Below, piece after piece: positions 19,768 to 64,000 of a stretch of DNA of 64,000 nt. Source of the DNA: Candidatus Komeilibacteria bacterium (GTDB lineage: Bacteria > Patescibacteriota > Patescibacteriia > UBA1558 > 2-01-FULL-52-15); contig JAZDLR010000022.1 of the NCBI GenBank assembly GCA_043801745.1, positions 1,960 through 65,959 on the forward strand, written 5' to 3'. Made by a program: the position numbers and the translations under genes. The notes under the pieces are model-generated. The model did no database searches. It saw only the letters and a list, made by a program, of their open reading frames with translations, and had not been told where the DNA came from. Within the stretch, counting starts at the first letter, position 1, and the number at the start of each line of letters is the position of its first letter.

Positions 19768-21036
19768 ATGACCATTACGCAACGCCGAATTGTCTACAGT
19801 CTTTTCTTCCTGCTTTTTTTTATTATCTCGCCCCTGATCGTGCTTTACGCCACGGGCTACCGGCTAGATCTGACCTCGGGAAGTATCAGTAAAGTGGGCG
19901 CTTTATATATTAAGACCTACCCCTCAGGCGCCAAAGTCTACCGCAATAATCTATACACTAAGCGGAAAACTCCCACGCAAATAGTTAACATACCCAGCGG
20001 CTTACAAACTATTAGCGTGATCAAAGATGGCTATCAGCCCTGGACAAAAGAACTGCGGATTGAAGCCGGAAAAACCACCTTCGTCGAAGACATTGTTTTA
20101 TTCCGTGAAACATTTACCAGCGAAAAGTTAGGCGCCGGCGGTTCCCAACTAGTCTTATCACCCGACAGGGAACTGGCAGCCTATGCTGACAATAACAATA
20201 AGTTAGCTATCGTTAACCTGACTGCCGGCACTATTGATACCAGTATTATTCTGCCGGCGGCAAGTCGCATCAAGCGTTGGTCACAAGATCACAGCCGCCT
20301 AGCTTACCAGACGCGCGAACAATGGAATATTGTGGATATTGGCAGTCAAAAGGTTTGGCCCTTAGCCAACTACATTAAGGGTCCAATTTCCAACTTACAT
20401 TTCGGCAGCACTGGCGATGATATCTGGGTTCAAGCCGGCAGTAGTTTATGGCGACTCAATTTGCTAACTGGAAAAAAGCAGATCGCTGCTAACGAAACCA
20501 AAGATTTTTACATCACTGCCGACTCGCTGGTGCAATTATCTTCCGACAACCATCTGCTGCTGGCCAAAATCACCACTAACAGTCAACAGGTCTACGCTCT
20601 GCCCGCCGGCGATTATCAATATATTGCTGATTTCCGCAATGATGTGGTTTTACTGCAGGGCAACAATCAATTTTTTATCTGGAGTAATGAGCAGTTGCGG
20701 GACACTATTAGCGCCACCCAATTTGACTGGCGCAAAAATAAAATTATCTTAACCAATGGCTACGACATCTGGCGCTATGACACGGCCGATCAGTCCACAA
20801 CTCTGCTAGACCGCACCGGTTCACAGCCGCAGCTTATTCGCTGGCATCCCAGTGAAAGCTATATTACCGAAGTAGTGGGCGGCCAGATTCAAATAATTGA
20901 ATTAGACAACCGCGGTGAGAAACGCCACCTGATCACTATTGCCCCCTTATCCCAGGGCGATTATACTTTTGACCCCAAAGGCGAAAAAATCTATATCCTC
21001 ACGGACAAAGATTTTCAGCAGTTAACTATTCAGTAG
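19768..21036 (+). CDS. PEGA-domain membrane-anchored protein with a C-terminal beta-propeller-like region
   Basis: N-terminal TM, then YPSGAKVYRNN..IVNIPSGLQTISVIKDGYQPW (PEGA-like). Confidence 0.5.
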   Translation: MTITQRRIVYSLFFLLFFIISPLIVLYATGYRLDLTSGSISKVGALYIKTYPSGAKVYRNNLYTKRKTPTQIVNIPSGLQTISVIKDGYQPWTKELRIEAGKTTFVEDIVLFRETFTSEKLGAGGSQLVLSPDRELAAYADNNNKLAIVNLTAGTIDTSIILPAASRIKRWSQDHSRLAYQTREQWNIVDIGSQKVWPLANYIKGPISNLHFGSTGDDIWVQAGSSLWRLNLLTGKKQIAANETKDFYITADSLVQLSSDNHLLLAKITTNSQQVYALPAGDYQYIADFRNDVVLLQGNNQFFIWSNEQLRDTISATQFDWRKNKIILTNGYDIWRYDTADQSTTLLDRTGSQPQLIRWHPSESYITEVVGGQIQIIELDNRGEKRHLITIAPLSQGDYTFDPKGEKIYILTDKDFQQLTIQ

Positions 21037-21763
21037 TCCCGTTGCCACGGCGCAAACGGGCAATCAGATTAGAAGCCTCCAGTAAGGCGTCAAAAGTCCC
21101 GGTATCCAGCCAATGACCCTCAAAAATTTGTAGTTCCAAAGATCCTTCCCGCAGATAGAGATTATTAATATCCGTAACTTCCAACTCGTTTCTGGCCGAA
21201 GGCTTGAGCGACTTGGCTTTGGCCACCACAGTGGAATCATAGACGTATAATCCGGTAACAGCCAAATTACTTTTGGGCTCTGCCGGTTTTTCGCTAATTG
21301 CTACTACTTTCTTATCAGGACCAAACTCAACTACGCCGAACCGCTTGGGGTCAGTCACTTCTTTGGCAAATATCCGGCCACCCGAGGTAAAACTGGTAAT
21401 CGCATGCCGAATTTGCTCCTCATGACCTATAAACAAATTATCGCCCAGGATCATTGTCACCGGATCATTGTCAATAAAGTTTTCGGCAATTATAAAGGCT
21501 TGCGCTAATCCTTCGGGACGGTCCTGTACCTCATAGGAAATTTTTACACCCCAATCCCGACCGCTACCCAACAGTCTGACAAAATTGCCAATATTCTGCG
21601 GATCAGAAATAACTAGTATTTCTTTAATACCAGCCGCGATTAGGGTTTGCAGCGGATAATAAATCATTGGCCGATCAAAAATCGGCAACAGCTGCTTACT
21701 GGTAATTTTGGTCAGCGGATACAGGCGCGTACCAGCGCCCCCGGCTAAAATAATTCCTCTCAT
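21026..21763 (-). CDS. rfbA: Glucose-1-phosphate thymidylyltransferase (short form)
   Basis: MRGIILAGGAGTRLYPLTKITSKQLLPIFDRPMIYYPL. Confidence 0.75.
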   Translation of the reverse strand: MRGIILAGGAGTRLYPLTKITSKQLLPIFDRPMIYYPLQTLIAAGIKEILVISDPQNIGNFVRLLGSGRDWGVKISYEVQDRPEGLAQAFIIAENFIDNDPVTMILGDNLFIGHEEQIRHAITSFTSGGRIFAKEVTDPKRFGVVEFGPDKKVVAISEKPAEPKSNLAVTGLYVYDSTVVAKAKSLKPSARNELEVTDINNLYLREGSLELQIFEGHWLDTGTFDALLEASNLIARLRRGNGTTE

Positions 21764-21767
21764 TCGT

Positions 21768-22745
21768 TTATTGTTTATAGGCTCCCGACACTATAGCGCG
21801 CCACCAATTCTGCTGCTCCCGATACCAATCAATGGTGGCTTTCAGCCCTGATTCGAAATCATATTCCGGTTGCCAGCCTAATGTCAAGTTGCTGGCACTA
21901 CTGTCAATAGCATAACGCCAATCATGGCCCGGACGGTCAGTAACAAATTCTAGTACGTCATCTGTCACGCCCATCAGCGCTACAACCTTACGCGCCAGGT
22001 CAATATTACTCAACTCCTGACCGCCACCGAAAAGATAGGTCTGTCCCACTTGTCCTTTTTGTAAAACCAGCTCTATACCCCGTATATGATCTAGTACATG
22101 CAGCCAATCCCGCACGTTACTACCATCGCCGTAAATGGGAACTTTCTTAGACTGCAAAATATTAGTAATCATCAGCGGTAAAAATTTTTCCGGGAACTGA
22201 TAAGGACCGTAATTATTACTACAATTACTAATGGTTATAGGTAAGCCATAAGTATAATAATAAGCGCGCACTAAATGATCAGCAGCGGCCTTAGAAGCCG
22301 AATACGGACTATGCGGGTCATAGGGGCTATGTAAATTAAAAGTCCCTTGAGCCGAAAGACTGCCAAAAACTTCATCGGTGGAAACGTGATGAAATCTCTT
22401 GACTCCCAGCTCTTTGGCGGCCGCCAATAAAATACCCGTACCGACCACATTGGTCTGTAAAAAAGGCAGAGCATTTTTAATAGAGTTGTCGACGTGCGAC
22501 TCAGCCGCAAAATGAACAACTACGTCAACACCCGACATCGCCCGACCCACTGCTGCCGCATCAGTTATGTCTCCCAGAATAAAACTATAGTTGGCCAGGG
22601 ACTCAATTGCAGATAAATTGGCTTTATTACCGGCGTAAGTGAGAGCATCAAGATTTACAATCTGATCGGCCGGATGCTGACGCAGCCAATAGTGAATAAA
22701 ATTGCTGCCGATAAATCCGGCTCCGCCGGTTACCAGGAGTTTCAT
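21768..22745 (-). CDS. rfbB: dTDP-glucose 4,6-dehydratase
   Basis: MKLLVTGGAGFIGSNF.., YSASKAA (YxxxK), 325 aa. Confidence 0.8.
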   Translation of the reverse strand: MKLLVTGGAGFIGSNFIHYWLRQHPADQIVNLDALTYAGNKANLSAIESLANYSFILGDITDAAAVGRAMSGVDVVVHFAAESHVDNSIKNALPFLQTNVVGTGILLAAAKELGVKRFHHVSTDEVFGSLSAQGTFNLHSPYDPHSPYSASKAAADHLVRAYYYTYGLPITISNCSNNYGPYQFPEKFLPLMITNILQSKKVPIYGDGSNVRDWLHVLDHIRGIELVLQKGQVGQTYLFGGGQELSNIDLARKVVALMGVTDDVLEFVTDRPGHDWRYAIDSSASNLTLGWQPEYDFESGLKATIDWYREQQNWWRAIVSGAYKQ

Positions 22746-23140
22746 GACCTTAAGACATTCTTGATGGAGTCAGCCATAATAACGTCAGCGCCTTCCTGGT
22801 AAGCAGTTGTCGGCCAACCTTTAAACCCATCATTAAAATAACGCGGAATTAAATGAATATGAAAATGCGGCACGTCTGTGCCAACCACATTTACGACAAC
22901 GAAGTCAGCGCCGGTGGCCAATTTGATGGCTGGTAATAATTTCTTGGCTTTAATAAACAGCTGAGCTAATAAAGTATCCGGAGTTTCCGCCAATTGCGCG
23001 TGATGCTGCTTGGGTATTAATAAAACATGTCCCGGATGCACTGGCTTAATATCCAGAAAGGCTAAAGCTTGCTCATCTTCATAAACCTTGTTGGCCGGAA
23101 TAGTGCCGGACACAATGGAACAAAATAGGCAATCAGTCAT
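22742..23140 (-). CDS. HIT-family (histidine triad) hydrolase
   Basis: HVHFHIHLIP triad. 132 aa. Confidence 0.75.
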   Translation of the reverse strand: MTDCLFCSIVSGTIPANKVYEDEQALAFLDIKPVHPGHVLLIPKQHHAQLAETPDTLLAQLFIKAKKLLPAIKLATGADFVVVNVVGTDVPHFHIHLIPRYFNDGFKGWPTTAYQEGADVIMADSIKNVLRS

Positions 23141-23531
23141 TGTTCTGCGGTTTTTTAATGATTAATCTGATAACTGTCAATATAATAATAACCGCTACAG
23201 TCGGCCACCACAACCAGTTTGGCAGTACTGCTAAACGGATAATAATTTTATCAACAACCATAACGGCCGCCAGAAACCAGAACAAATAATACCAGCGCCA
23301 CCAACCACTTAGGCGCTGCTCCTCTACAACCAACCCGGCCACCACTACAATAACTATTGTCAGCAACACCATCAGATTGAGATCGGCTATATTACTAATA
23401 ATGCCGGGCTTGAGCCATTCCAGGCCAGCTGCCAGAACAGTGGTCAAACTACAGCTGACAGCTGCCTCCAAGGCCAATTGACGGAATTTAGGCTGATTTA
23501 ACCAAAGCATATAATTCTTGTTGTAGAGCAC
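23133..23531 (-). CDS. Small integral membrane protein
   Basis: Hydrophobic helices. In-operon overlap with neighbours. Confidence 0.4.
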   Translation of the reverse strand: MLYNKNYMLWLNQPKFRQLALEAAVSCSLTTVLAAGLEWLKPGIISNIADLNLMVLLTIVIVVVAGLVVEEQRLSGWWRWYYLFWFLAAVMVVDKIIIRLAVLPNWLWWPTVAVIIILTVIRLIIKKPQNND

Positions 23532-24054
23532 GCCAAACGGCTGATACCGAAGTTAGCGGCTGTTTATACAGACTAACGGTCAGCGCCTCAATAGTTAATT
23601 TATTTACCGACTGATCATAATTAGACAGTGACAACATAAAACGCAATGAGCGCTGTTCCACGGCAGCTGATGCTGGATCAAAAGTAACGCTAGCGCGACC
23701 ACTACTATCAGCCTGCAAAGTCTGTAAATAATAGTTCCAACCGGCAGTATCTTGCACTTGTAATCCCAGCTGGACCACTGATGGCTGCGGTTGTTGGTAA
23801 CGGATCGCCACAGTTACTTTATCGTACTTCTGCGGATAGCGTACCCGCCAATATACAGGTTCAGCCAAGACGTCCAGGCCACCGGCTGACGCAGTTAAAC
23901 GGCCAACCGGATACAAGCGAGAAATTTGCGGACTCTCCTGTTGCCAATCATAAGTAATAACTCGTACTCCCGATAGATTTAAATCATACAGCACGACTAG
24001 TGCAAAAAATACCAGAGGGATGGCAGCAATGATCCAGCGTAATACTCTAATCAT
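23488..24054 (-). CDS. Membrane-anchored hypothetical protein (N-terminal TM plus extracytoplasmic domain)
   Basis: N-terminal hydrophobic helix. 188 aa. Confidence 0.4.
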   Translation of the reverse strand: MIRVLRWIIAAIPLVFFALVVLYDLNLSGVRVITYDWQQESPQISRLYPVGRLTASAGGLDVLAEPVYWRVRYPQKYDKVTVAIRYQQPQPSVVQLGLQVQDTAGWNYYLQTLQADSSGRASVTFDPASAAVEQRSLRFMLSLSNYDQSVNKLTIEALTVSLYKQPLTSVSAVWRALQQELYALVKSA

Positions 24055-25633
24055 GGATTAATTCCAATTGATATAAGCCCAAATTTTCCGCCTCAAAAAG
24101 CGGCGGACCCAAACGTAGACCATAGTTATTCCATTGCTGATTAAAATAGTCCCGACGTTCACTTGTAACCTGCGGATTTAGAAAATAGACCGGCCAACCA
24201 GCGCGCACTAAAGCCGCCGTTGCTTCCAAATAGCCGCTATCGCCCTGAGGTGTTACAACCGCATAGGTTGGCCATAAATATTTATCCGCCTTCTGGGTCA
24301 TAATTATGGAGTCAGCCGGTATGATTGCTTTGACACGTTCCAAAGTTCTAGTATAAACCTGCAAGTCCCGCCTCTGCTGCCACCACCCCTCCTGCGGCTC
24401 CAGCATCACCCGCTGAAATGAGAACAAACCCAAAGTCAAAACAATACTGACGATAAATAATTTCTGATACCGCGGTAACAATTGCCGGCTTAAGCCAATA
24501 ATAGCCCAAGCAACATAAGGAGCCAATAAAATATAGAGCGGTAATAAATAACGCACATACGAGGTGCCAATAGTCACGGCTCCGGGCTCGGGATTATCTT
24601 GTAGGGCCCAGCTGCCGTAATAGCACAATAGAAAAATCCCCACAAAAAGTGTTAACCAACCATAACGACGATGCCGTTGCTCTTTAAAATTATGCCGTAA
24701 AGACAAAGCGCCGACCAAAGCTAACAGCAAAAAGGGGAACTGCCACCAGACAACATATTGCTCAACCACCCAAAGTATCAACCGCGGATGAAAACCAAAA
24801 GGGAAAAGTAGAGCCGAAACAAGATAAAAAATGCTAGTTGGACCAGTCGAAATTATCTGATTGCCACCGCCCCAAAGTACCGACCAGTGATCCACCACCG
24901 CCAGTAAGGCAACCAGCACGACAGGAATCACGCCTAAGGCTGCCAATAAAATATATTTGGCGAACAACCGCCGCCATTCAATGACAATAAAAGTAGCGAC
25001 AGCAGCTAATATCCAGACCGATTCCGAAGGTCTGACGATTATCGCCCCGGACAGAGTGACTCCCAGCAAAGCGTAATCCCACCAGCGGCGGCGCTGGGAA
25101 ATTTGGTATAAATAATAACTGGCCATCAGCAACAAACTAACAAACAATACGTTGGGCAATAAGCTGCGTTGAGTATAATAAAGCCAGGCCGGATGAAACA
25201 TGGCCACCAAAACTGACCACCAAGCCATTTGGGGCGAAAAAACTTTCTTGATCAACCAATAAAAATGCAGCAAACCTAATAAGGCGAAGAGCAAGGTCCA
25301 ATATGGTAGTAGCACCGTGGAAGTTAAACTACTTAAGAAACCATAGAAAGCAATTAGTCCGACAAATCCGGCCGGTAATAAATATCCGCCCCTGACAACC
25401 GCGCTGCGCGGTGTAACATATTCGCCGGCCACCGGTATGGTCACCGGCAAACCCAGCGGCTGACCCGTAGCCAAACGATAGGCAAAATGATAGTTAATAG
25501 TGGCATCGGGCGATTCAAAAATCTTGGCCGGCCCCCCATTCCAAATTAATATCAGCTGAAGAACAACAAAAATGCCAAAAATCACAAATAGGCCATATTG
25601 TGTCAAGAGTTGAATCTTAAGCTGGTGCCACAT
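24047..25633 (-). CDS. Polytopic membrane protein, possible GT-C-type glycosyltransferase or polymerase
   Basis: More than 10 predicted TM helices. Context in the glycan locus. Confidence 0.4.
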   Translation of the reverse strand: MWHQLKIQLLTQYGLFVIFGIFVVLQLILIWNGGPAKIFESPDATINYHFAYRLATGQPLGLPVTIPVAGEYVTPRSAVVRGGYLLPAGFVGLIAFYGFLSSLTSTVLLPYWTLLFALLGLLHFYWLIKKVFSPQMAWWSVLVAMFHPAWLYYTQRSLLPNVLFVSLLLMASYYLYQISQRRRWWDYALLGVTLSGAIIVRPSESVWILAAVATFIVIEWRRLFAKYILLAALGVIPVVLVALLAVVDHWSVLWGGGNQIISTGPTSIFYLVSALLFPFGFHPRLILWVVEQYVVWWQFPFLLLALVGALSLRHNFKEQRHRRYGWLTLFVGIFLLCYYGSWALQDNPEPGAVTIGTSYVRYLLPLYILLAPYVAWAIIGLSRQLLPRYQKLFIVSIVLTLGLFSFQRVMLEPQEGWWQQRRDLQVYTRTLERVKAIIPADSIIMTQKADKYLWPTYAVVTPQGDSGYLEATAALVRAGWPVYFLNPQVTSERRDYFNQQWNNYGLRLGPPLFEAENLGLYQLELIHD

Positions 25634-30229: not shown

Positions 30230-30231
30230 CC

Positions 30232-31606: not shown

Positions 31607-31612
31607 AAATTG

Positions 31613-46005: not shown

Positions 46006-46007
46006 TT

Positions 46008-48445: not shown

Positions 48446-48466
48446 AGATATTATTAGAGCTAATGA

Positions 48467-49279: not shown

Positions 49280-49375
49280 TAAAAGACCTTTTTGTCAATT
49301 CTAATGACCGGCCAACTCCTGGCTACTATTTTACCTTTAGCTTGAGGTCCGGTTACAAGCCACAGCTATTAAAAA

Positions 49376-51224: not shown

Positions 51225-51257
51225 GTTATCAATAAGAAATGAGGTAACGCCAATAAA

Positions 51258-52514: not shown

Positions 52515-52602
52515 AAATCAATAGCAATTAGCTGTTTAAATAAAACACTGAAATTATAGTATATTGCGCCAAATTGTCAATGTTTAAGCGCCGAATTGAC
52601 GA

Positions 52603-54383: not shown

Positions 54384-54399
54384 TGATCTGTAATATCGC

Positions 54400-55389: not shown

Positions 55390-55410
55390 ACAAATAAATA
55401 TAAAGGCAAA

Positions 55411-55965
55411 TTATTTTTTTCCCTGATAATATACAGCGCTATGAATCGGGCTACCTTGCGAAAGAAAATAACCGCTTTCCACTTCAGCAAAATCCTTCAT
55501 CCACTCCCGCAAACCCAGCTGGGTTACCCGCCAATAATCCTGGGGTGAGGGATGAAAGGGTTGACAAAAGGGGACTTCAATCCAAATCTCGCCACCCGGC
55601 TTCAACACACGCCGTAGCTCGGCAATGGCACGCCCGGGGTCGGGAACATGTTCTAACACCGCCGCACAAACCACCACATCAAAGACCTCATCCGGAAACT
55701 CCAGGTTCATTATATCATAGTGAAAATCAATATAATCAGACTTATCATATAAATCAACACTAACCCAAGCAGGCGAAAATTTCTGTTTGCGTACACCAAT
55801 TTGTAAACCTTTTCGCTCCTTAAAACGTTCAACCAATTTATAGAATGAGGCGTCTCTAGCTGAACGGTCATCCTTGATTAATCTAGAAAAAGTCTGACGG
55901 TATAAATGAAAGTACCATCCACTGGGAAAATATTTAATAATAATTTGTTTAATTGTCTTCAGCAT
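55411..55965 (-). CDS. Class I SAM-dependent methyltransferase (Methyltransf_11-like)
   Basis: VVVCAAVLEHVPDPGRAIAELRRVLKPGGEIWIEVPF. Paralogue of the 58156-58770 gene. Confidence 0.6.
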   Translation of the reverse strand: MLKTIKQIIIKYFPSGWYFHLYRQTFSRLIKDDRSARDASFYKLVERFKERKGLQIGVRKQKFSPAWVSVDLYDKSDYIDFHYDIMNLEFPDEVFDVVVCAAVLEHVPDPGRAIAELRRVLKPGGEIWIEVPFCQPFHPSPQDYWRVTQLGLREWMKDFAEVESGYFLSQGSPIHSAVYYQGKK

Positions 55966-55985
55966 CTTATTTAATAATACAATAA

Positions 55986-57107: not shown

Positions 57108-58159
57108 AATTGTTTATATTGCTGTACAACTTTAGTTATTAACGCATCAATATTATGCTCATTAACAATCAATTCTCTTAACTTGCTCTGAAGTAATAAG
57201 CGATCCTCTGCCGACAACTGCAGGATTATTTCGGCCTTATTCAGCAGATCCGCATAGCTCTCAGCAAATAAATTTTCGTTAATATTATGGAAAAAATTTC
57301 GATAGGCGGTGTTGGTGGTTATAACGATTGTGCCACAGGCCATGGCTTCCAACACGACTTTATCTAAGCTGCCTGTCCGACTACAATTAACGAATAAGTC
57401 AGCGCCAGAATAAACCGCCGGTAATTCAATATTAGGCACCGCGGCAATAAATTCGACAAAATCAGCTAAACCCTCCTGCTTAATCTTCTGCTCTAACCCA
57501 CGTAAATACTGATCGTCTCCCGGCCGTGAAGTCTGCCCAACTAAGCGTAAGCGGACCTGCGGATATCCCAACTGGTGCAAATCTTTCACGAGATCGATTA
57601 ACCACTCTAGATTTTTACTCGGCGTTGTCCGCCCAACAGTTACTAGCGTAAATAATTGACCGGGCGTTTTTGGTTTAAAGCTGAATAATTCAGTATCAAT
57701 ACCCTGATGTAATACCAGCATTTTTTTCGAGGCCAAACGGAATCCTTCAGCTGATGAAGTAGCCACGACATTGACCAGACGTTCCATTAAACGCACTTTC
57801 CAGCTGACGGCGCCATGCGCATACCAGCTGATTAATTTTTTTTGAAATAGTCTAGCCCAGGGTGCGATCAAAATGGCGTATTCCGGATTCTGATGCGTCC
57901 AGACGCCATCAATGTGCGGCACAATCTTACCGGCTAATAACTGAAACCGCCAAAATTCCCGCCAGCGATTTTTGCCACACTCCTTACCCAGAGAATAAAC
58001 CTGACAGTTGGCCGGTAAATCGGAAATATCTCCCCTTTCTAAACAAATGACATCTAACTGATCAACTAACCGAGCAATCTTTTTCACCCATTGATAACTA
58101 AAGCCCGCTAAAGCGTCCTGTCGGTCAATTTTTCTGGTAATATACAGCAATTTCATCAC
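57104..58159 (-). CDS. Glycosyltransferase family 4
   Basis: GSLDKVVLEAMACGTIVITTNT. Confidence 0.6.
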   Translation of the reverse strand: MMKLLYITRKIDRQDALAGFSYQWVKKIARLVDQLDVICLERGDISDLPANCQVYSLGKECGKNRWREFWRFQLLAGKIVPHIDGVWTHQNPEYAILIAPWARLFQKKLISWYAHGAVSWKVRLMERLVNVVATSSAEGFRLASKKMLVLHQGIDTELFSFKPKTPGQLFTLVTVGRTTPSKNLEWLIDLVKDLHQLGYPQVRLRLVGQTSRPGDDQYLRGLEQKIKQEGLADFVEFIAAVPNIELPAVYSGADLFVNCSRTGSLDKVVLEAMACGTIVITTNTAYRNFFHNINENLFAESYADLLNKAEIILQLSAEDRLLLQSKLRELIVNEHNIDALITKVVQQYKQL

Positions 58160-58770
58160 TTCGTAAGAAAAATATTATAGCCGCTGGTCTGATTGGTGCT
58201 AGTTTTATGTAGCCACCTATCTAATAACCGCGTCAGTCCGCGTGTCAGACGCGATAACTTAACCGGATACAATTTATTAACCGTTTCCAGGGCGCCGCGC
58301 ACATTAACTGATTCAAAACCGGAAAATTCGCGTAATAAATAGCGCGCACCCTCAATCGTGTAGCGATAAAAATCCCCATAATAACCTGGCAGAGGATGAT
58401 AATAATAGAGAAACGGCAAATATATATAGGCGTAACCCCCGGGTTTAAGTACACGATGAATTTCTCGCGCGGCTTTCTGCGGTTCTTCCACGTGCTCTAA
58501 AACAGCAATACAAATGACCGCCTCAACTGAATTATCAGCTAAAGGTAACTGATGGATATCGCCGACAATATCCGGATGAAAATCAGCCACCTTGTCCACT
58601 ATTTTATAATTCACGCTGTTAATTTTATCTTTTAACCATAAACGCTGTTGCTCGCACCGATTACCCTGACCTGGCTGAATTCTTAATCCTCCGCCAATAT
58701 CAATAATATCTTTTTTTTCTTCAAAAATTTTGGTTAACTTTTCAACTTCAAATTTTTCCCAGGGTGTCAT
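58156..58770 (-). CDS. Class I SAM-dependent methyltransferase (Methyltransf_11-like)
   Basis: AVICIAVLEHVEEPQKAAREIHRVLKPGGYAYIYLPF. Confidence 0.6.
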   Translation of the reverse strand: MTPWEKFEVEKLTKIFEEKKDIIDIGGGLRIQPGQGNRCEQQRLWLKDKINSVNYKIVDKVADFHPDIVGDIHQLPLADNSVEAVICIAVLEHVEEPQKAAREIHRVLKPGGYAYIYLPFLYYYHPLPGYYGDFYRYTIEGARYLLREFSGFESVNVRGALETVNKLYPVKLSRLTRGLTRLLDRWLHKTSTNQTSGYNIFLTK

Positions 58771-59909
58771 GACAAATTATTTTCAGCTAGCTTTTGCCAC
58801 AAATTAATTATTTCAGAAATATTTCTCTCCCGGTCAAAGCGTTGTCGATACTGTCGCGCCGCCATCTGACCAAGACGATCACGTTCAGTTTTATCCGTTA
58901 AAAGCCTGTCAATAACTTCTACGGTTGATGACAAATCATTAAGTGGCACAACAACTCCTGTCTGACCGTCTTCAATGATTGTCCCGGCACCCAGTGTAGC
59001 CGACGCCACCGTTGCCACGCCGGCCGCGCCAGCTTCAATAATAACCTTGCCAAAGCTCTCATTAGTAGATAGCAGTAGCAATAAATAGGCCTGTTGATAA
59101 TAATCCACTAACTGCTCCGGCGTTTTATCGCCCTGGAAAAATACCACCCCATCTAAACCCAGCCGGTGGCTTTGACGTTTGATATCTTCCTCCAGCGGTC
59201 CTGATCCAATGATAGAAAGGTTGAAATCCTGCCTTTTCTGCCGTAATTCAGCCATAACCCGCAGCATAAAATCTAAATTTTTAGCTGCCACTAAACGCCC
59301 GACAAAAAGTAAAGTCTTAACAGCGCTTTCCGGCTTATTAATTACTGCGGAAAAACGTTCAACATCAACCGGCGTGTTAATAACAACAATTTTGTCAGCC
59401 GCCACACCCAGCTGCCGCACAGCTGCTACCAACCGATCAGAAACTACGCGGACAATATCCGCACGCGGCAGTACCCGGGATTGAATCCGGGCAAAGAGCT
59501 GGTTTTTCCAGGATTCAGCTAACCACTGACGATTACCGATAAAGTCACCGTGCAGATGAACCTCCAAGGGCAGCTGAAACTTTTTCTTCAGCCACCAGCC
59601 CAACAAACCGGTAGCGTGCGGATCTTGCGTATCGATCAGATCATAAGGCCGTTGGCGCAAAAGTCGGGCAGCAATCTTCCAACCAGTAAATAATTTGTTT
59701 ACCGCGCCAGGACCAGTAGAATAAACTGCGGCATTGGCAGCCAACGCACTTACAGTACGCTCCCTACCGCCCAGAACAACAATATCCAAACGAGCAACAC
59801 GCGCGGCGTATGCTTGATGCCGTTGACGCACATCACTGGCTGACCGCTCAATCAGTAATCCGTCATCCAGACTGATCATTAATATTGATAATTGATCGGC
59901 TGGTTTCAT
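58767..59909 (-). CDS. Glycosyltransferase family 4
   Basis: ESFGKVIIEAGAAGVATVASATLGAGTII. Confidence 0.65.
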   Translation of the reverse strand: MKPADQLSILMISLDDGLLIERSASDVRQRHQAYAARVARLDIVVLGGRERTVSALAANAAVYSTGPGAVNKLFTGWKIAARLLRQRPYDLIDTQDPHATGLLGWWLKKKFQLPLEVHLHGDFIGNRQWLAESWKNQLFARIQSRVLPRADIVRVVSDRLVAAVRQLGVAADKIVVINTPVDVERFSAVINKPESAVKTLLFVGRLVAAKNLDFMLRVMAELRQKRQDFNLSIIGSGPLEEDIKRQSHRLGLDGVVFFQGDKTPEQLVDYYQQAYLLLLLSTNESFGKVIIEAGAAGVATVASATLGAGTIIEDGQTGVVVPLNDLSSTVEVIDRLLTDKTERDRLGQMAARQYRQRFDRERNISEIINLWQKLAENNLS

Positions 59910-59910: not shown

Positions 59911-61062
59911 TTAAGCCAAACAGCTAATAAATAATTTGTTCATGGCAACAGCGATTGTATTCCAATCATATTGAGCTCGGACTAACTGCTGGCCAGTAGT
60001 TTGAATGTGCCGATACAACTGCTGATCACAATAATAGCGTTGCAGTGCCTGGGCAATAGATAGAGGTTGACGCACCTGACAAACTAAACCGGTTTCACCA
60101 TCACGCAAAAAATCAACAATACCCCCAACCGGGGTAGCTATGATCGGCAAACCAAAAGCCATAGCTTCTAAAAATGAATTACCTAAGCCCTCAGATAAAG
60201 AAGGCCGGCAGAAGACATCGGCCGCTGCCAAATACTTAGGCATTTCCCGATGATCAATCTGACCAATAAAGGCAACGTATTGCGCGACACCTTTCTTAAC
60301 AGCCAAAGCTTCTAAAATTCTCTGGTCCGAGCCGGCACCGACAATTAATAAACGAGCCGGCACGCCCAACTTATAACGCGCGCAGTTGATGGCTTTGATC
60401 AAATCATCAATGGCATTCTTATAGACCAGACGACTAGTAGTAATAACCACAAACTCCTCATCAGCAATGGTTAGTTGATGACGGAAATCCCGGCACTGGG
60501 CAACAGAAAAGGAGTTAGTAAAAACGTCCAGATCAACACCGTTGGGTATAACAGCAATTTCTTTCTTTCTATGTCCAAATTTTTTAGCGCGACGGGCCAG
60601 ACTCTGACTAATAGCCTGCAAACGGACAGCCCGTTTATACATTGAACGGTAAATTGGCAGCCAAAACCAAACCCGTATCCAGATAAAAAAATCCGAGTCG
60701 CCACTTTGCTCGGTCAAGACATAGGGCACACGCGAACGCCAACGAAAAAGCCAGGCCGCTAATCCGGCGTAATTAGCCATCATGGCCCAAGCCAGATCAA
60801 ACTTCTGAAATGACTGCAATTGATAAGCGCGACGGGCGGCCCGGAAAGCATAAAGATACTTGTCCCAGATATTCCCCTGCCCCAGACGGATAACCTTAAT
60901 ACGACCCAACATCTCCTCCTTGGGCAGCTCCGGTTTAAGTTTAGCTGTCAGTAAAACAGCATCAAAATCAGTTATGCGGTCGGCGATTTCCTTGATAGCC
61001 ACCTCAGCTCCACCAACAAATGGATAGTAAGTCAAGGAAAATATCAGTAATCTTTTAGCCAT
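59911..61062 (-). CDS. Glycosyltransferase family 4
   Basis: EGLGNSFLEAMAFGLPIIATPVGGIVDFL. Confidence 0.65.
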   Translation of the reverse strand: MAKRLLIFSLTYYPFVGGAEVAIKEIADRITDFDAVLLTAKLKPELPKEEMLGRIKVIRLGQGNIWDKYLYAFRAARRAYQLQSFQKFDLAWAMMANYAGLAAWLFRWRSRVPYVLTEQSGDSDFFIWIRVWFWLPIYRSMYKRAVRLQAISQSLARRAKKFGHRKKEIAVIPNGVDLDVFTNSFSVAQCRDFRHQLTIADEEFVVITTSRLVYKNAIDDLIKAINCARYKLGVPARLLIVGAGSDQRILEALAVKKGVAQYVAFIGQIDHREMPKYLAAADVFCRPSLSEGLGNSFLEAMAFGLPIIATPVGGIVDFLRDGETGLVCQVRQPLSIAQALQRYYCDQQLYRHIQTTGQQLVRAQYDWNTIAVAMNKLFISCLA

Positions 61063-61193: not shown

Positions 61194-62354
61194 ATGATTA
61201 GCGGAAAAAAAATATTATACGTCATTACCCAGAGCAAATATGGCGGGGCACAAAAATACGTCCTGGATCTAGCTAAGGCTTTTACGTCTCACAACTCAGT
61301 AAGCGTGGCTGTTGGTGAGCTGAACGACCAGGACCAGACTTTTTTTCAACCTTTAGCTGATCAGCCTACTATTCAGGTACACCGTCTAATTTCTCTGCAG
61401 CGGGGAATTAATTTACTCAAGAACTGGCAAAGCGTCTGGGAATTAAAAAAACTTTATAAAACTATTGAACCAGACTTAGTTCACATTAACAGCTCTATGG
61501 CTGGTTTTACCGCCAGCTTAGCCGCCCATTGGTACAACCGAACTGCCGTAAAAAAAATTAAAGTAGTTTACACCGCTCATGGTTTTGTTTTCGATGAACC
61601 ACTGCCGGTCTTGGTTCGCCAGCTATATATTTTTATTGAACGCCTGGGCGCTCGCTGGAAAGACGCCATCATTACGGTCTCCGACCAATCAAAATTAAGC
61701 GGCGTCAAACATGGCCTAGCACTTAGCAATAAATTCACTACTATTCATAACGGAATCAGCCTGACGCCGGAAAATTTTTTTAGCCGTGAGCAGGCACGCC
61801 TCAAATTGCATCTTCCGCCCGACGCTTTAGTGGTCGGCAGCATTTCCTCCTGCTATCCAACTAAAGGCTTACGCTATCTGATTGAAGCCGCTTATCAGCT
61901 AGCACGACCGGAAGTTCAATTCATTATTATCGGCGGTGGTCCGGAAAAAGATTACCTGCAGGAATTAATCGGGAGACTAAAATTAACCAAGCAATTTTAC
62001 CTGGCGGGCGCTAAAGCCGAAGCCTGGCGCTATTTACCAGCCTTTGATCTTTTCGTTTTACCTTCAGTCAAAGAAGGACACCCCTATGCCATCTTAGAAG
62101 CTGGTCTGACTCCTCTACCGGTGATCGCCTCTAATGTTGGCGGCATACCCGAAATTATTAATCACGACCATAATGGCTGGCTAGTGCCGCCCGCCGATGC
62201 CGTATCTTTAGCTGCTGCCATAACCAAAGCTTTAGAACAACCAGCCGAACGAACACGTATAGCCCTAGCTTTACAACAAACCGTCCAAAGAGAATTTTCA
62301 CTCTCGGCTATGATTACTAAGACCGACCAGGTCTACCAGCGACTATTGATCTAG
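61194..62354 (+). CDS. Glycosyltransferase family 4
   Basis: EGHPYAILEAGLTPLPVIASNVGGIPEII. Confidence 0.65.
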   Translation: MISGKKILYVITQSKYGGAQKYVLDLAKAFTSHNSVSVAVGELNDQDQTFFQPLADQPTIQVHRLISLQRGINLLKNWQSVWELKKLYKTIEPDLVHINSSMAGFTASLAAHWYNRTAVKKIKVVYTAHGFVFDEPLPVLVRQLYIFIERLGARWKDAIITVSDQSKLSGVKHGLALSNKFTTIHNGISLTPENFFSREQARLKLHLPPDALVVGSISSCYPTKGLRYLIEAAYQLARPEVQFIIIGGGPEKDYLQELIGRLKLTKQFYLAGAKAEAWRYLPAFDLFVLPSVKEGHPYAILEAGLTPLPVIASNVGGIPEIINHDHNGWLVPPADAVSLAAAITKALEQPAERTRIALALQQTVQREFSLSAMITKTDQVYQRLLI

Positions 62355-64000
62355 GGCTGAAGACTGGGGAAATAGGGTATCAGCGCCGGCAATAAACTGG
62401 GATAATTATTTACCGCTTGTTGAGCACTGATCTCAGCTTTTTCCGTCTTCCCTTGTCCTAGCAGTAACAAGGCTGTTAACAGGGCAACATCGGCAGGCGA
62501 CTTTTGTCGTTGTTTTAAGATTTCTAGGTGTTTAGCTGCTAAATCATAGCTGCTAGTTCGTAAATCATATTGCGTTACAGCCAACAAATCAGCATACGGG
62601 GCAGTGACCAAATGCTGATTAAAATAATCATTGGCCTCCTTTAACCAACCCAGGTTAAGTAATTGCTTATAGTATTGAATATGAGTATCAAAAATTTCCG
62701 GCCGACGTTCGGCTACTTGCTGGAATAAATCCAAACCCGCCTGCTCCTGTCCGGAAGCTAGGCGTAATTGACCGGCAATGTAAAGAAATTGGGTCCGCTC
62801 CGGATTGTCACGAAGCAAAATTTCTGCCAGCTTCAAACCCCGCTCCCAATAAACGCTATCTATCCGGCCTGCCAGTAAATAAAAATTTGCCAGTTCAACG
62901 TAATTTACCGTGTCCCCAGGCTTCTTGCTGATATTTTTTAGCATAACGGATTCAGCATAAGCTATCTGTTGTTTTAGTGCTGCCACCTCCAAGGGTGAGC
63001 CGCGGGCAATTAAATCACTAACCAACAAAACATACTGATAACGCAGCTCGGATTTACCCAGCGTCGGCGCTGCAGCTGCGTCATACCTAATAGACTCCAA
63101 TTTCTCCGCCGTAATCAACTGCCAGTCAGAACGGACCGACATTAGACTGGTGGTGAAGCGGTAGTTAGCCAAAAGGTTCTGAACAAAAAAATTATAGATA
63201 AATAAGGCAGCGATCAAACATAACACAGAAAAAAATACTGGGCGTCTAAATGGCGTCTGTAGTGGCAAGCCATACTTGTCAACTTTATCTGAAAGTTCCG
63301 TCTCACGGCTCCAGATATAAGCCAGAAGAACGAAGAAGATCAGTTGATTATTGATCGTGTCAAAATAGAAAATACTTTGAATTTGATAAACCAAGGCTCC
63401 AGCTGCCAGAATGACCCAGGCTGTTCTTTCAGCCGGTTTCTGCCGCCACAAACGCAGCCAAGAACGAAGCAACAATAACCATAGTACTAAATATAATAAC
63501 AGTGCCACCAAACCGCCTTCCACCAAATGCTGAATAAAAATATTATGCGCTTTATCATACCAGATCGGCGAAACACCAGAGCGAAATATGCGGTCATCAT
63601 AATGCTGATTAAAGGCAAGGGAAAAATTTTCCGGACCCCAACCCAATATTGGCTTAGCCCGGAAAGCCTGCCAGCTAATATCCCAAACAACCAAACGGTC
63701 ATAAAATGAGTTATAGGGCTGTAAATCGTCCTTAGATAGGGTGAGTGACTGCCAATTGACAAATATCAGCCCAAGGCCCAAACAAGCCAACAGTATTATG
63801 GCCAAAATCAATCTCTGCTTAACTGATACCAGTCTTCGGCTCTGCTGCCAGGCGGCAATGATAAATAAAACCACCAAACCAAAGGCTGTAGCAACAACGG
63901 CGATGCGGGCTCCCGAAAGCCACAAAGCTGCTAATTGCAGCAACAATAGACTGCCGACGGCCAACCAACGTTGCCAAGATTTTTTATCTAAGCGATACCG
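62351..64000 (-). CDS. O-antigen-ligase-like (Wzy_C) membrane protein fused to C-terminal TPR repeats; 5' end beyond window (partial)
   Basis: The reading frame stays open from 63964 to 64000 (the track 'M' is a TTG). TM region plus WDISWQAFRAKPILGWGPENF (ligase loop), then TPR-like helical repeats. Confidence 0.55.
   Translation of the reverse strand, partial: RYRLDKKSWQRWLAVGSLLLLQLAALWLSGARIAVVATAFGLVVLFIIAAWQQSRRLVSVKQRLILAIILLACLGLGLIFVNWQSLTLSKDDLQPYNSFYDRLVVWDISWQAFRAKPILGWGPENFSLAFNQHYDDRIFRSGVSPIWYDKAHNIFIQHLVEGGLVALLLYLVLWLLLLRSWLRLWRQKPAERTAWVILAAGALVYQIQSIFYFDTINNQLIFFVLLAYIWSRETELSDKVDKYGLPLQTPFRRPVFFSVLCLIAALFIYNFFVQNLLANYRFTTSLMSVRSDWQLITAEKLESIRYDAAAAPTLGKSELRYQYVLLVSDLIARGSPLEVAALKQQIAYAESVMLKNISKKPGDTVNYVELANFYLLAGRIDSVYWERGLKLAEILLRDNPERTQFLYIAGQLRLASGQEQAGLDLFQQVAERRPEIFDTHIQYYKQLLNLGWLKEANDYFNQHLVTAPYADLLAVTQYDLRTSSYDLAAKHLEILKQRQKSPADVALLTALLLLGQGKTEKAEISAQQAVNNYPSLLPALIPYFPSLQP

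Follow-up and report, generated by a model that had tools for sequence, protein, structure and literature searches.

Gtr-type systems of Gram-positive bacteria and phages (the GtrA/GtrB/GtrC phage clusters, CsbB/GtcA/YfhO, GacI/GacJ/GacK/GacL and M. tuberculosis PpgS/Rv3632 with a GT-C) combine a small GT2 that makes a polyprenyl-phosphate sugar, a small membrane partner encoded beside it (GtrA, or DUF2304, which is the GacJ family) and a GT-C that transfers the sugar outside the membrane (PMC8035078). GacJ activates the GT2 enzyme GacI (10.1101/180810), and Rv3632 and PpgS show the same behaviour. The Wzx/Wzy loci for O-antigen, capsule and EPS encode a WbaP/WcaJ-type priming enzyme, many GT4 and GT2 enzymes, a Wzx and a Wzy_C-family enzyme, and their syntenic core is joined to a replaceable part, which varies from one close relative to the next. 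The locus described here, at 21026-64000 of a 64,000-nucleotide stretch of Komeilibacteria DNA (the window), shares the features of both. It differs from Gtr-type systems in having three sets per locus, two GT-C families without a Pfam model and one EamA/SMR partner with four transmembrane segments (TM). Unlike Wzx/Wzy loci, the window has no chain-length regulator, Wzz/PCP, OPX, tyrosine kinase or LCP ligase and no recognisable Wzy besides a Wzy_C protein with a long TPR domain, of which relatives have two copies; the locus sits in a monoderm whose genome is reduced.

Gene content and packing

The ORF survey of the window placed 42 genes in the locus, 38 of them on the minus strand. Neighbouring genes overlap at 24 of the 41 junctions (8 by exactly 4 nt) and only two gaps exceed 100 nt, in agreement with the tight packing described by a sequence-only reading of the same DNA. 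Each ORF of at least 100 aa within 21026-64000 was scanned with Pfam, and names were cross-checked with NCBIfam models and sequence searches against the PDB; the evidence base is computational and consists of MAG sequences. Pfam identified ten GT4s (Glycos_transf_1 and Glyco_transf_4 type, all but one on the minus strand), four GT2s, five class I methyltransferases and one C-methyltransferase, and an independent HMM made from the window's own glycosyltransferases (GTs) again returned 10 GT4 and 4 GT2. The sequence-only reading was therefore right about four GT2s and six methyltransferases, whereas its figure of about 12 GT4s was too high. The GT4s share only 22-34% pairwise identity and are therefore not recent duplicates. 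Eight GTs lie within ±10 kb of the priming enzyme, against a median of two across 36 loci around homologous priming enzymes, a density matched only by close relatives. The gene families uphold the earlier assignment to a cell-envelope glycan, and the locus is a genuine, very GT-rich cell-surface glycan cluster assembled from known types of machinery.

Five genes have no obvious glycan role, namely those for the HIT protein, the S8/FG-GAP peptidase, CotH, DUF4956 and VTC. All five were omitted from the sequence-only account, and we know of no established role for them in glycan synthesis.

The left edge and the core

The genes up to the end of Wzx are as follows.

21026-21763, minus: rfbA, short 245-aa form (NCBIfam 332 bits, cutoff 360)
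21768-22745, minus: rfbB (NCBIfam 454 bits, cutoff 365)
22742-23140, minus: HIT-family protein (Pfam HIT, E 1.9e-21)
23133-23531, minus: unk132, four TM predicted, no Pfam match
23488-24054, minus: unk188, N-terminal TM predicted, no Pfam match
24047-25633, minus: GT-C no. 1, PMT_2 family, at least nine TM (PF13231, 30.2 bits, cutoff 26.1)
25838-27904, plus: unk688, 12 TM and a C-terminal globular domain (AF2 model), probable GT-C no. 2
27885-29093, minus: GT4_a (Pfam)
29090-30238, minus: GT4_b (Pfam)
30232-31296, minus: GT2_a (Pfam)
31256-31606, minus: DUF2304 (Pfam)
31613-32287, minus: GT2_b (Pfam; best PDB match DPMS)
32274-33434, minus: GT4_c (Pfam)
33413-34327, minus: SDR304, GalE-like (Pfam and sequence search)
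34388-35428, minus: SDR346, UXS1-like UDP-glucuronate decarboxylase (PDB sequence search)
35425-36126, minus: GT2_c, soluble, DPMS/ArnC-like (PF00535, 100 bits; PDB matches)
36130-36594, minus: GtrA, four TM (PF04138 GtrA_DPMS_TM, 100.5 bits)
36567-38591, minus: secreted S8 subtilase with FG-GAP repeats (Pfam)
38683 (probable start)-40062, plus: priming polyprenyl-phosphate hexose-1-phosphate transferase (TIGR03025, 371 bits, cutoff 296)
40062-41324, plus: Wzx-type flippase (Polysacc_synt, 62.6 against 28.2)

The nearest relatives are Patescibacteria MAGs. A core from about 22.7 to 40 kb is syntenic at 49-90% identity in loci L001, L002 and L085, and at lower identity in L003 and L005. At its left edge the HIT protein is conserved (64% identity at the same position in L085), unk132 aligns at 50% identity to a stretch of L085 in which no gene was called, and GT-C no. 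1 has a 68% identical counterpart there. In unk188 we see an internally deleted form of a conserved 488-aa protein: its alignment to the L085 member covers residues 1-122 and 386-487 only. The GT block at 27885-33434 reaches 57-80% identity in L001 and L002, with lower values in L003 and L005; SDR346 (90% in L001 and L002) is better conserved than any other gene of the locus. GT2_c and GtrA, conserved across L001-L005, probably form a split polyprenyl-phosphate sugar synthase/flippase pair. The subtilase, which lies between GtrA and the priming enzyme, is syntenic at 51-75% identity in L001-L005 and has 674 aa in L085; its start is probably 38591 rather than 38633, with a signal peptide visible from M15. 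The priming enzyme has 459 aa in relatives. A conserved PEGA-domain membrane protein lies at the locus edge.

Two elements on this side are absent from the closest relatives. The rfbAB pair, which would supply dTDP-4-keto-6-deoxyglucose, is missing between PEGA and HIT in L085, the nearest relative in which this region can be compared, and SDR304 has no counterpart in L001 or L002 and is present in L003. The family names given in the sequence-only reading held up for rfbA (slightly under its cutoff), rfbB and both SDRs, as they did for gmd, the polyprenyl-phosphate sugar transferase, DegT, Wzx, GtrA and Wzy_C with TPR. The UXS-like call is good because SDR346 (346 aa) matches human UDP-glucuronate decarboxylase at E 3e-74 and 253 bits, against 94 bits for the next family, and it makes the previously proposed pentose branch plausible; no UDP-glucose dehydrogenase (Ugd) was found in the window.

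Three GT-C enzymes are encoded in the locus. Besides the PMT_2 member, unk688 is tentatively a divergent GT-C: its model (pLDDT 93, pTM 0.93) has meaningful Foldseek matches in the PDB only to STT3, AglB and ArnT (probability 0.93-1.0, E 1e-3 to 0.16, TM 0.37-0.45). Its family comprises 75 homologues, from Patescibacteria wherever a name is given. The third, unk584, is assigned firmly from its model (pLDDT 86), whose top 29 PDB fold matches are all GT-C. Neither the unk688 nor the unk584 family has a Pfam model. Each of the three small GT2s (GT2_b, GT2_c and GT2_d) has its best PDB matches among ArnC, GtrB and DPMS, and each adjoins a protein of 3-4 TM (DUF2304, GtrA or EamA/SMR). Among fusions in the unk584 family, an N-terminal extension of about 240 aa is a GT2 in 4/4 tested (one weak, under the Pfam cutoff) and an extension of about 145 aa is GtrA in 4/4 tested. 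Adjacency and counts suggest that the three GT2 modules pair one to one with the three GT-C enzymes, direct adjacency within a set being seen only for GT2_d/EamA/unk584.

The exchangeable right part

Because Wzx is merely 35-39% identical in relatives, the variable region begins there. After the priming enzyme, L001 carries a nitroreductase-like gene, a UDP-GlcNAc 2-epimerase and other GT4s, and L002 carries an ATP-grasp/CoA-binding/citrate-synthase-like trio, a hexapeptide acetyltransferase, FkbM, an APH-like kinase and an asparagine synthase. Comparison with homologous loci thus bears out a shared core, but not the region beyond the priming enzyme, which relatives have replaced. Here that region starts with a block of 12 genes (41350-53724).

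41350-42528, minus: GT4_d (Pfam)
42485-44254, minus: CotH (Pfam), type II membrane anchor, kinase domain predicted outside
44251-46005, minus: unk584, GT-C no. 3 (predicted structure)
46008-46379, minus: EamA/SMR, four TM (Pfam)
46434-47030, minus: class I methyltransferase MT_a (Pfam)
47020-47766, minus: GT2_d, ArnC-like (Pfam; best PDB match ArnC, 1.6e-24)
47750-48445, minus: DUF4956 (Pfam)
48467-49279, minus: VTC, polyphosphate-polymerase domain (Pfam)
49376-50119, minus: class I methyltransferase MT_b (Pfam)
50109-51224, minus: DegT aminotransferase (Pfam)
51258-52514, minus: 3-C-methyltransferase (Pfam)
52603-53724, minus: GT4_e (Pfam)

The same gene set recurs elsewhere in Patescibacteria, namely in other genomic surroundings in L081-L084 at 31-73% identity, and in part on shorter contigs (L089-L091 and L106). 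In L082-L084 its neighbours are restriction-modification, sigma-factor and TraG-like genes; it is embedded among other GT4 and methyltransferase genes in L081, and once adjoins rve integrases. DegT matches WlaRG (3e-139) and QdtB (2e-125), and the 3-C-methyltransferase matches MtmC/TcaB9, which favours the amino-deoxy sugars proposed earlier; a 3,4-ketoisomerase or 2,3-dehydratase serving a C-3 aminotransferase is absent from the window. The cassette couples a putative sugar-attaching GT-C/GT2/EamA/DegT module to a CotH kinase, VTC and DUF4956 trio.

Beyond the cassette lie the remaining genes.

53739-54446, minus: class I methyltransferase MT24 (Pfam)
54400-55389, minus: Gmd (TIGR01472, 436 bits, cutoff 415)
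55411-55965, minus: class I methyltransferase MT_c (Pfam)
55986-57107, minus: GT4_f (Pfam)
57104-58159, minus: GT4_g (Pfam)
58156-58770, minus: class I methyltransferase MT_d (Pfam)
58767-59909, minus: GT4_h (Pfam)
59911-61062, minus: GT4_i (Pfam)
61194-62354, plus: GT4_j (Pfam)
62351-64000, minus, cut by the window end: Wzy_C and TPR membrane protein of the polymerase/ligase/O-oligosaccharyltransferase family (PF04932, 72 against 31.7)

The GDP-sugar and methylation block (53739-58770) is missing from the equivalent position in both L001 and L002, and GDP-4-keto-6-deoxymannose reductase was not found in the window. The six methyltransferases of the locus make the heavily methylated glycan of the sequence-only reading plausible. 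GT4_h and GT4_i (51% and 75% identity at the end of L001) and GT4_j (49-51% identity adjoining Wzy_C in L087 and L088) form a semi-conserved right flank. The Wzy_C-TPR frame has no stop before 64000 and the full protein has 808 aa (P0091), which means that the gene extends past the window and that the locus probably does as well. Just upstream of it, relatives encode a further paralogue together with a TPR protein and a PMT GT-C. The family placement in the sequence-only reading stood, but its word "ligase" is merely a family name in an organism without LPS.

Readings of the locus and known systems

We favour, with a probability of roughly 0.6, a mosaic surface-glycan locus of a monoderm Patescibacterium that combines lipid-diphosphate assembly with three transmembrane glycosylation systems. 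In the order of steps that we infer, the WbaP/WcaJ-type phosphoglycosyltransferase would prime polyprenyl phosphate, and the ten mutually divergent GT4s and GT2_a would lengthen the chain on the cytoplasmic side. Their donors would be sugars activated with dTDP, GDP or UDP, some of them carrying amino, C-methyl or O/N-methyl modifications. Wzx would flip the finished unit, and the Wzy_C-TPR enzyme would polymerise it, hand it to the final acceptor, or both. In three parallel systems, a soluble ArnC/GtrB/DPMS-like GT2, assisted by its adjacent DUF2304, GtrA or EamA/SMR protein, would load one sugar onto polyprenyl monophosphate, and a GT-C (PMT_2, unk688 or unk584) would transfer it outside the membrane as a decoration. 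Within the clade, the core from HIT to the priming enzyme has probably been passed on vertically; the exchangeable parts, as in serotype-variable loci, are rfbAB, the GalE-like SDR and everything downstream of the priming enzyme. One of these exchangeable pieces is the 12-gene cassette, comprising an aminosugar GT2/GT-C module, an outward-facing CotH kinase and the VTC-domain/DUF4956 pair.

That all 42 genes form a single operon set for one heavily methylated heteropolysaccharide or S-layer glycan, close to the coherent unit seen by the sequence-only reading, is quite unlikely. The strand bias and overlapping junctions fit it, every block contains glycan genes, and rfbAB is found only where the dTDP-sugar-modifying cassette is. 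Relatives nevertheless keep the core without rfbAB, the cassette or the Gmd block, the cassette stands alone in L082-L084, and four plus-strand genes interrupt the minus strand, leaving at least four blocks. The S-layer or wall as target is a guess, because searching the window revealed no S-layer protein, no SLH domain and no LCP ligase. Alternatively, the cassette could be an autonomous island for surface modification that moves horizontally (its use might be, for example, to evade phage or host recognition), landed by chance in the variable region and has its own acceptor. Its recurrence elsewhere, its lower GC (0.424 against 0.453 in the core) and its own two GT4s, GT2, 4-TM protein and GT-C speak for such an island. 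We nevertheless consider it unlikely: neither repeats nor an integrase flank the cassette in the window, the L081 copy again sits among GT4 and methyltransferase genes, and the cassette lacks its own priming and nucleotide-sugar starter enzymes (rfbAB lies 20 kb away) and therefore depends on host supply.

Two further readings concern the acceptor. The Wzy_C family includes O-oligosaccharyltransferases, and the Wzy_C-TPR protein might be a PglL/PilO/WsaB-type enzyme that transfers the lipid-linked oligosaccharide in general O-glycosylation of surface proteins, for example type IV pilins, an S-layer protein or the PEGA protein, with no wall-attached polymer. This is somewhat unlikely, although a TPR domain suggests protein recognition, relatives have two tandem paralogues, Wzz/PCP and LCP were not found in the window, the organism offers no LPS acceptor and the PEGA protein is conserved at the locus edge; polymerase, ligase and O-oligosaccharyltransferase are not separable by sequence, the membrane domain has no match in the PDB sequence search, and the target protein is only putative. 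It is far less probable that the bacterium is a diderm, that the locus makes its LPS O-antigen and that Wzy_C-TPR serves as WaaL, as the NCBI protein name (O-antigen ligase family) and the titles of several relatives (uncultured Gammaproteobacteria) would suggest. The window protein has a counterpart of 100% identity in a Komeilibacteria MAG, and the Gammaproteobacteria labels look like placeholders because the relatives bearing them share MurA and PyrG at 83-84% identity with the window's genome. The unk688 family is confined to Patescibacteria, which to our knowledge are regarded as lacking LPS, and no Lpx, Lpt or Kdo genes were found in the window.

The mosaic locus that we favour also resembles three more specialised systems. 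With the S-layer glycan (slg) clusters of Geobacillus, Paenibacillus, Aneurinibacillus and Thermoanaerobacterium it shares a WsaP-like priming enzyme, a Wzy_C-family transferase, rml genes, methyltransferases and a QdtB-type 3-aminotransferase, QdtB itself coming from an S-layer glycan pathway; it is about twice their size and, in the window, has no S-layer gene or SLH domain, QdtA/FdtA isomerase, N-acetyltransferase or RmlC/RmlD. The cassette shares the logic and part order of the Arn pathway for L-Ara4N lipid A (ArnB, ArnC, ArnE/F, ArnT), with DegT, the ArnC-like GT2, the SMR/EamA protein and the GT-C as equivalents. It differs in lacking ArnA, ArnD and lipid A; its aminotransferase is QdtB/WlaRG-like (468 bits) and less ArnB-like (about 154-169 bits), its donor is probably a dTDP-deoxyhexose rather than a UDP-pentose, and ArnT is only a mid-rank fold match. 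CotH, VTC and DUF4956, all above Pfam cutoffs here, also occur as accessory genes in the extracellular-polysaccharide loci of Gram-positive pel systems (PMC7112168; PMC12345266) and C. perfringens NELoc-2 (PMC2879425), and CotH is predicted to face outwards, as proposed for S. intermedius SIR_1594. Here, by contrast, pel genes and DUF4832 are absent, four genes separate CotH from DUF4956-VTC, and the trio is tied to a GT-C/GT2/EamA/DegT module. Synteny of CotH, VTC and DUF4956 outside pel loci was stated as not found (PMC12345266); the cassette shows this trio linked to a GT-C module without pel genes.

Gene content and enzymes of the glycan locus

All open reading frames (ORFs) of at least 100 amino acids in 21026–64000 were scanned against Pfam, and selected ones also against NCBIfam and PDB sequences. 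Of the 42 genes in the interval, 38 lie on the minus strand. Neighbouring genes overlap at 24 of the 41 junctions, in eight cases by precisely 4 nt, and gaps longer than 100 nt number just two, which bears out the tight packing, 4-nt overlaps and prevailing orientation described in the sequence-only reading. The four GT2 glycosyltransferases and six methyltransferases of that reading were recovered with Pfam (five class I enzymes and one sugar C-methyltransferase in the latter case). Its GT4 abundance also stands, whereas its figure of about 12 gives way to 10, and an HMM built from the window's own glycosyltransferases again yielded ten GT4 and four GT2 enzymes. Recent duplication of the GT4 genes was rejected, as their mutual identity is only 22–34%.

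RfbB, Gmd and the priming phosphoglycosyltransferase exceeded NCBIfam equivalog or subfamily cutoffs; RfbA is of the short form and falls slightly under its cutoff. A 346-aa SDR matched human UDP-glucuronate decarboxylase at 253 bits among PDB sequences, with the next family at 94 bits (UXS-like SDR), and a 304-aa SDR is GalE-like. The C-methyltransferase matches the sugar 3-C-methyltransferases MtmC, TcaB9 and KijD1. For the DegT protein, the C-3 aminotransferases WlaRG (468 bits) and QdtB (422 bits) are the best matches, and ArnB (about 154–169 bits) and perosamine synthase are far poorer. Five genes had been passed over: those for HIT, a secreted S8 peptidase with FG-GAP repeats, CotH, DUF4956 and VTC. 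With these small corrections, the earlier observation of the locus is confirmed. An Rfam scan returned tRNA-Gln as the only RNA family.

GT-C candidates and proposed GT2 donor modules

Two polytopic proteins without a Pfam model were followed up by structure prediction and homologue searches:

44251–46005, minus strand: unk584, member of a large predicted GT-C family without a Pfam model (homologues P0001–P0015 and P0118–P0266)
25838–27904, plus strand: unk688, member of a second family without a Pfam model (homologues P0016–P0090)

No Pfam match to unk584 was found even at an E value of 5. Its AlphaFold model, built from 15 homologues (pLDDT 86, pTM 0.88), had GT-C proteins as all of its top 29 PDB fold matches (E values from 4.5e-7 to about 2e-2), including STT3, PglB, AglB, DPY19, AftA, ArnT, AftD, Pmt4 and ALG9. 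The family profile (search space of 1.84 billion) retrieved 2,232 cluster representatives when the E value was limited to 1e-3 and 772 when it was limited to 1e-30. Some members have N-terminal extensions, which contained GT2 in four of four tested (one weakly) and GtrA in four of four others; GT4 was present in one. These natural GT2 and GtrA fusions tie the family to three-component glycosylation logic. The model of unk688 (pLDDT 93) gave weak fold matches, though exclusively to GT-C proteins (STT3, AglB and ArnT). Every named one of its 75 detected homologues is from Patescibacteria, namely Komeili-, Buchanan-, Falkow- and Magasanikbacteria, and a GFGFDPFIH motif around D201/H205 is invariant. 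On these models, unk584 is predicted to be a GT-C enzyme and unk688, more tentatively, a probable divergent one; together with a PMT_2 protein that scores over its Pfam cutoff, they make three GT-C candidates in the locus. Two such families lacking a Pfam model, one of them comprising about 2,200 cluster representatives, some naturally fused to GT2 or GtrA, should be useful beyond this host.

Three small soluble GT2 enzymes (GT2_b, GT2_c and GT2_d) share 29–32% identity. The best PDB match of GT2_d is ArnC (1.6e-24), followed by GtrB and DPMS, and GT2_c and GT2_b match DPMS/ArnC. Each adjoins a small membrane partner: DUF2304 (80.3 bits) for GT2_b, GtrA (100.5 bits; present Pfam name 'GtrA/DPMS transmembrane domain') for GT2_c and an EamA/SMR protein with four transmembrane (TM) helices for GT2_d. 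GacJ, of the DUF2304 family, binds and activates the GT2 GacI, and the mycobacterial pair Rv3632/PpgS acts in the same way (10.1101/180810); the general scheme of glycosylation by a GT2, its partner and a GT-C has been reviewed (PMC8035078). We infer that these three GT2s form polyprenyl-P-sugars that are passed to an extracytoplasmic acceptor, such that three lipid-monophosphate sugar donors would feed three GT-C enzymes. Direct adjacency of GT2 and GT-C occurs only in GT2_d/EamA/unk584. As the UXS-like SDR lies directly upstream of GT2_c/GtrA and no gene of the locus is better conserved (90% identity), a pentose donor is a reasonable guess for that module; UDP-glucose dehydrogenase is absent from the window.

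A shared core, an exchangeable region and a proposed lipid-diphosphate line

We compared the window with loci of relatives (L001, L002, L003, L005 and L085, of which L085 and L002 are one contig). The housekeeping genes and the left boundary agree, with PyrG, L9, S41 protease, MurA and a PEGA protein. The conserved core then runs through HIT, a 488-aa protein, PMT_2, unk688 (plus strand), two GT4s, GT2, DUF2304, GT2, GT4, the UXS-like SDR, GT2, GtrA and the S8 peptidase to the priming polyprenyl-phosphate hexose-1-phosphate transferase (plus strand), with identities of 49–90% in the closest relatives. Both rfbA and rfbB are absent from L085, and the GalE-like SDR is absent from L001, L002 and L085 and carried by L003 at 56% identity. 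Past the priming enzyme, conservation ends: Wzx is 35–39% identical and the subsequent genes differ. L001 continues with a nitroreductase-like protein, a 437-aa protein, a 512-aa GT4, a UDP-GlcNAc 2-epimerase and a methyltransferase, and homologues of GT4_h (51%) and GT4_i (75%) come back further on. In L002, a trio of ATP-grasp, CoA-binding and citrate-synthase-like proteins is placed ahead of Wzx, which is followed by an acetyltransferase, FkbM, an APH-like kinase, methyltransferases, a GT4 and an asparagine synthase. Judged by gene order, the pattern is that of a serotype-variable glycan locus, with a fixed frame and a swappable middle. A dispersal of the genes over operons of unrelated function in relatives, the outcome that would have told against the sequence-only reading, applies only in part: it fails as regards function, but the genes do not form a single conserved unit either.

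Several features of the relatives stand beside this comparison. The L002 set (11407–14133, between the priming enzyme and Wzx; its ATP-grasp protein includes a citrate-binding match) resembles a set of the ATP-citrate-lyase or citryl-CoA type. It is unexpected beside glycan genes and may be there for an acyl or carboxylate substituent. The variable region of L001 opens (12692–15261) with a 418-aa protein of two nitroreductase domains, and the 437-aa protein that follows, without a Pfam match, is a possible Wzy candidate. The window protein unk188 (23488–24054, minus strand) matches residues 1–122 and 386–487, the two ends of a relative's conserved 488-aa membrane-anchored protein (L085 6850–8316), and about 260 internal residues have therefore been lost from the window copy. 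MurA and PyrG are 83–84% identical, in full synteny, between the window and a relative titled 'uncultured Gammaproteobacteria', so such titles of close relatives look like placeholders; the priming enzyme has its nearest relatives in MAGs, whose other labels include Patescibacteria, Parcubacteria and Falkowbacteria. Two window proteins match proteins of a Candidatus Komeilibacteria MAG at 100% identity (locus tags V1846_04735 and V1846_04815, 131,442-bp contig). At the left edge, the PEGA-domain protein (19768–21036) has an N-terminal TM helix, is 66% identical in a relative and could be exposed at the surface and serve as a target of glycosylation. Further upstream (3871–5114 and 6864–9311) lie a NYN-domain protein, an 815-aa CARDB-domain protein and a 210-aa ORF with a weak match to IS200-like Y1 transposases (E 9e-4). 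GC content is 0.53 in 10001–12000, where no Rfam RNA family matched, and about 0.44–0.46 elsewhere; ORFs of similar length occupy both strands of 10800–11132.

The priming enzyme scores 370.9 bits against TIGR03025 (cutoff 295.55) and matches Bac_transf at E 4e-64. A Wzy_C-TPR protein is the sole candidate for a Wzy polymerase in the window by Pfam, and relatives have two paralogues; its Wzy_C membrane domain had no match to PDB sequences. Among window ORFs of at least 100 aa, Pfam matched neither a chain-length regulator (PCP; Wzz, CpsC/D) nor an attachment enzyme (LCP, or WaaL with a lipid A core), although genes for them may be located beyond the window. The Wzy_C-TPR ORF, 808 aa at full length, has no stop before 64000; the locus is therefore cut by the window end and probably continues beyond it. 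In relatives, tandem Wzy_C-TPR paralogues of 832 and 810 aa (L087 3–10828; L088 1017–6704) come after genes for a small TPR protein, a GT-C of the PMT family and a protein of 1029 aa, and the same genes probably lie just past the window end. The longest-ORF starts of the priming enzyme (38584–40062) and the S8 peptidase (36567–38633) overlap head-to-head. Judging by relatives and by a visible signal peptide, the true starts are probably 38591 (S8 peptidase) and 38683 (priming enzyme), which would leave a 91-nt divergent promoter region between them. The reason for a conserved secreted S8/FG-GAP peptidase inside the glycan core is not obvious.

Surface polysaccharide loci of 25–45 kb are of ordinary length in bacteria. 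For glycosyltransferase density, we sampled 36 loci in which 20 kb or more surrounds a priming-enzyme homologue and counted GT4 and GT2 genes in about 21 kb with HMMs, tblastn being too insensitive. The window has 8 against a median of 2, an approximate contrast because the HMMs come from the window itself and favour its relatives; L001, L002 and L005 have 10, 7 and 4. On these counts the clade is dense in glycosyltransferases.

The recurrent cassette and the overall reading

In other Patescibacteria, homologues of unk584 lie within the same 12-gene set, which occurs in whole or in part as follows:

41350–53724, minus strand: cassette of the window, 12 genes
L081 1792–15818: cassette in another Patescibacteria locus
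L082 2481–15578: cassette in a second such locus
L106 1–2662: part of the cassette, on a shorter contig

The order in relatives is GT4, VTC, DUF4956, GT2, methyltransferase, C-methyltransferase (an SDR instead in L081), methyltransferase, DegT, EamA, GT-C, CotH (922–923 aa, with a beta-helix) and GT4. The gene content of the window cassette is identical, in slightly changed order, but its CotH is shorter, the beta-helix being absent. Against the L082 group, identities extend from 31% (GT4_e) to 73% (C-methyltransferase), and no counterpart of GT4_d was detected there at the threshold used. In L082–L084, restriction-modification/DUF3800 genes lie on one side of the cassette and sigma-factor/TraG-like genes on the other, and one copy is adjoined by rve integrases; the presence of the cassette in these other genomic contexts points to a portable unit. 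In the window its GC content is 0.424, against 0.453 for the core; no repeats were found flanking the window cassette. In a metagenome scan, all unk584 homologues of at least 38% identity on a sufficiently long contig were followed by CotH, a linkage seen in L081–L084, L089–L091 and L106 (ordered GT-C, VTC, DUF4956, CotH in the last of these). The locus of a 33%-identical homologue (L096) keeps EamA, GT2, methyltransferase and DegT without CotH, VTC and DUF4956, and the aminosugar/GT-C part is thus separable from the phosphate trio.

The chemistry of the cassette can be proposed in outline. RfbA and RfbB would supply dTDP-4-keto-6-deoxyglucose, to be modified by the C-methyltransferase, the QdtB-type aminotransferase and a neighbouring methyltransferase; the ArnC-like GT2 would load the sugar onto lipid, the 4-TM protein aid its flipping and the GT-C transfer it. 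A C-3 aminotransferase requires a ketoisomerase or 2,3-dehydratase, and neither is present, which leaves a gap in this scheme.

All three trio proteins are above their Pfam cutoffs (CotH 103.6 against 23.8 bits, VTC 145 against 23, DUF4956 69.2 against 30.6). CotH has a positively charged N terminus followed by one TM helix, so by the positive-inside rule its kinase domain should face outward. It aligns with Bacillus cereus CotH (5JD9) over 207 residues (E 3.7e-7), and the alignment pairs two candidate catalytic residues, N in 'HNY' and D in 'PWD'; the VTC protein had no match to PDB sequences. In Gram-positive pel loci, the trio adjoins as an accessory gene group of unassigned function (PMC7112168), and mutants in the CotH-like and DUF4956-like genes of Streptococcus intermedius show less Pel-dependent aggregation (PMC12345266). 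The authors of the latter study, in 2025, did not find the trio in synteny away from pel loci; VTC proteins, CotH and glycosyltransferase genes occur together in Clostridium perfringens NELoc-2 (PMC2879425). By gene order in the window and its relatives, the trio is linked to a non-pel glycan system, a module of GT-C, EamA, GT2, DegT and methyltransferase, which gives a broader comparative basis for working out its role. A literature search for a function of DUF4956 or the trio found none.

It is conceivable, although we consider it improbable, that the cassette is an undescribed route by which a polyphosphate-supplied CotH would phosphorylate a glycan or glycoprotein of the surface from outside. 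The yeast VTC complex makes polyphosphate and threads it across a membrane. Here, a cytoplasmic VTC-domain enzyme and the DUF4956 membrane protein would do likewise, and the outward CotH would use polyphosphate or its products on the sugar just attached by GT2/EamA/GT-C, with a putative carbohydrate-binding beta-helix in the 922–923-aa homologues. If true, this would explain both the phosphoryl donor of a secreted kinase where ATP is absent and the presence of the trio beside unrelated exopolysaccharide systems (pel, NELoc-2 and the Patescibacteria GT-C module).

For the locus as a whole, we favour, at a probability of about 0.6, a Wzx/Wzy_C-type assembly line whose product three GT-C systems would decorate, the right half of the locus being exchangeable. 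The sequence-only interpretation is partly supported: it holds as to a glycan locus with amino-deoxy and pentose chemistry and methylation, whereas the single unit is not borne out and the S-layer target and the unusual genome fraction stay conjectural. The locus is built from known kinds of glycan machinery; the cassette and the two Pfam-less GT-C families most merit follow-up. Patescibacteria live attached to other cells, and to our knowledge their surface chemistry is essentially uncharted; our literature search found no description of comparable loci in them. The locus offers a concrete parts list for this surface: a lipid-diphosphate line, three predicted systems for GT-C decoration and a swappable region. 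The last of these probably determines the surface identity of a strain and so bears on host recognition and phage resistance.

Other assignments fit less well. An antibiotic-sugar or secondary-metabolite cluster was rejected because PKS/NRPS genes are absent and the transferases are membrane-linked, and an LPS O-antigen locus because the host is a Patescibacterium. We also rejected a genuine Arn pathway: neither ArnA nor ArnD is there, no formyltransferase or deformylase family matched in the locus by Pfam, the UXS-like SDR sits outside the cassette in another block, and the aminotransferase belongs to another subfamily (WlaRG/QdtB-type, 468/422 bits; ArnB about 154–169 bits). The pel accessory module shares CotH, VTC and DUF4956 with the locus, but here the trio is not contiguous with pelDEA(DA)FG and DUF4832; no Pel or DUF4832 family matched, the neighbours are GT-C, EamA, methyltransferase, GT2 and DegT, and a pel locus was rejected accordingly.

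Further comparisons concern S-layer clusters, assembly lines and GT-C systems. As regards S-layer glycosylation (slg) clusters, the window has a Wzy_C domain, from which OTase activity does not follow, and it has neither an S-layer structural gene nor an SLH-domain target linked to the locus: Pfam matched none of these families in the window, and only the PEGA and CARDB proteins lie nearby. With Wzx/Wzy-dependent assembly, the locus shares a WbaP/WcaJ-type hexose-1-phosphate transferase and a Wzx with at least seven TM helices (PF01943, 62.6 bits; cutoff 28.2). With the GtrABC/GacIJKL systems, it shares a polyprenyl-phosphate-type GT2, a small multi-TM partner and a GT-C candidate.
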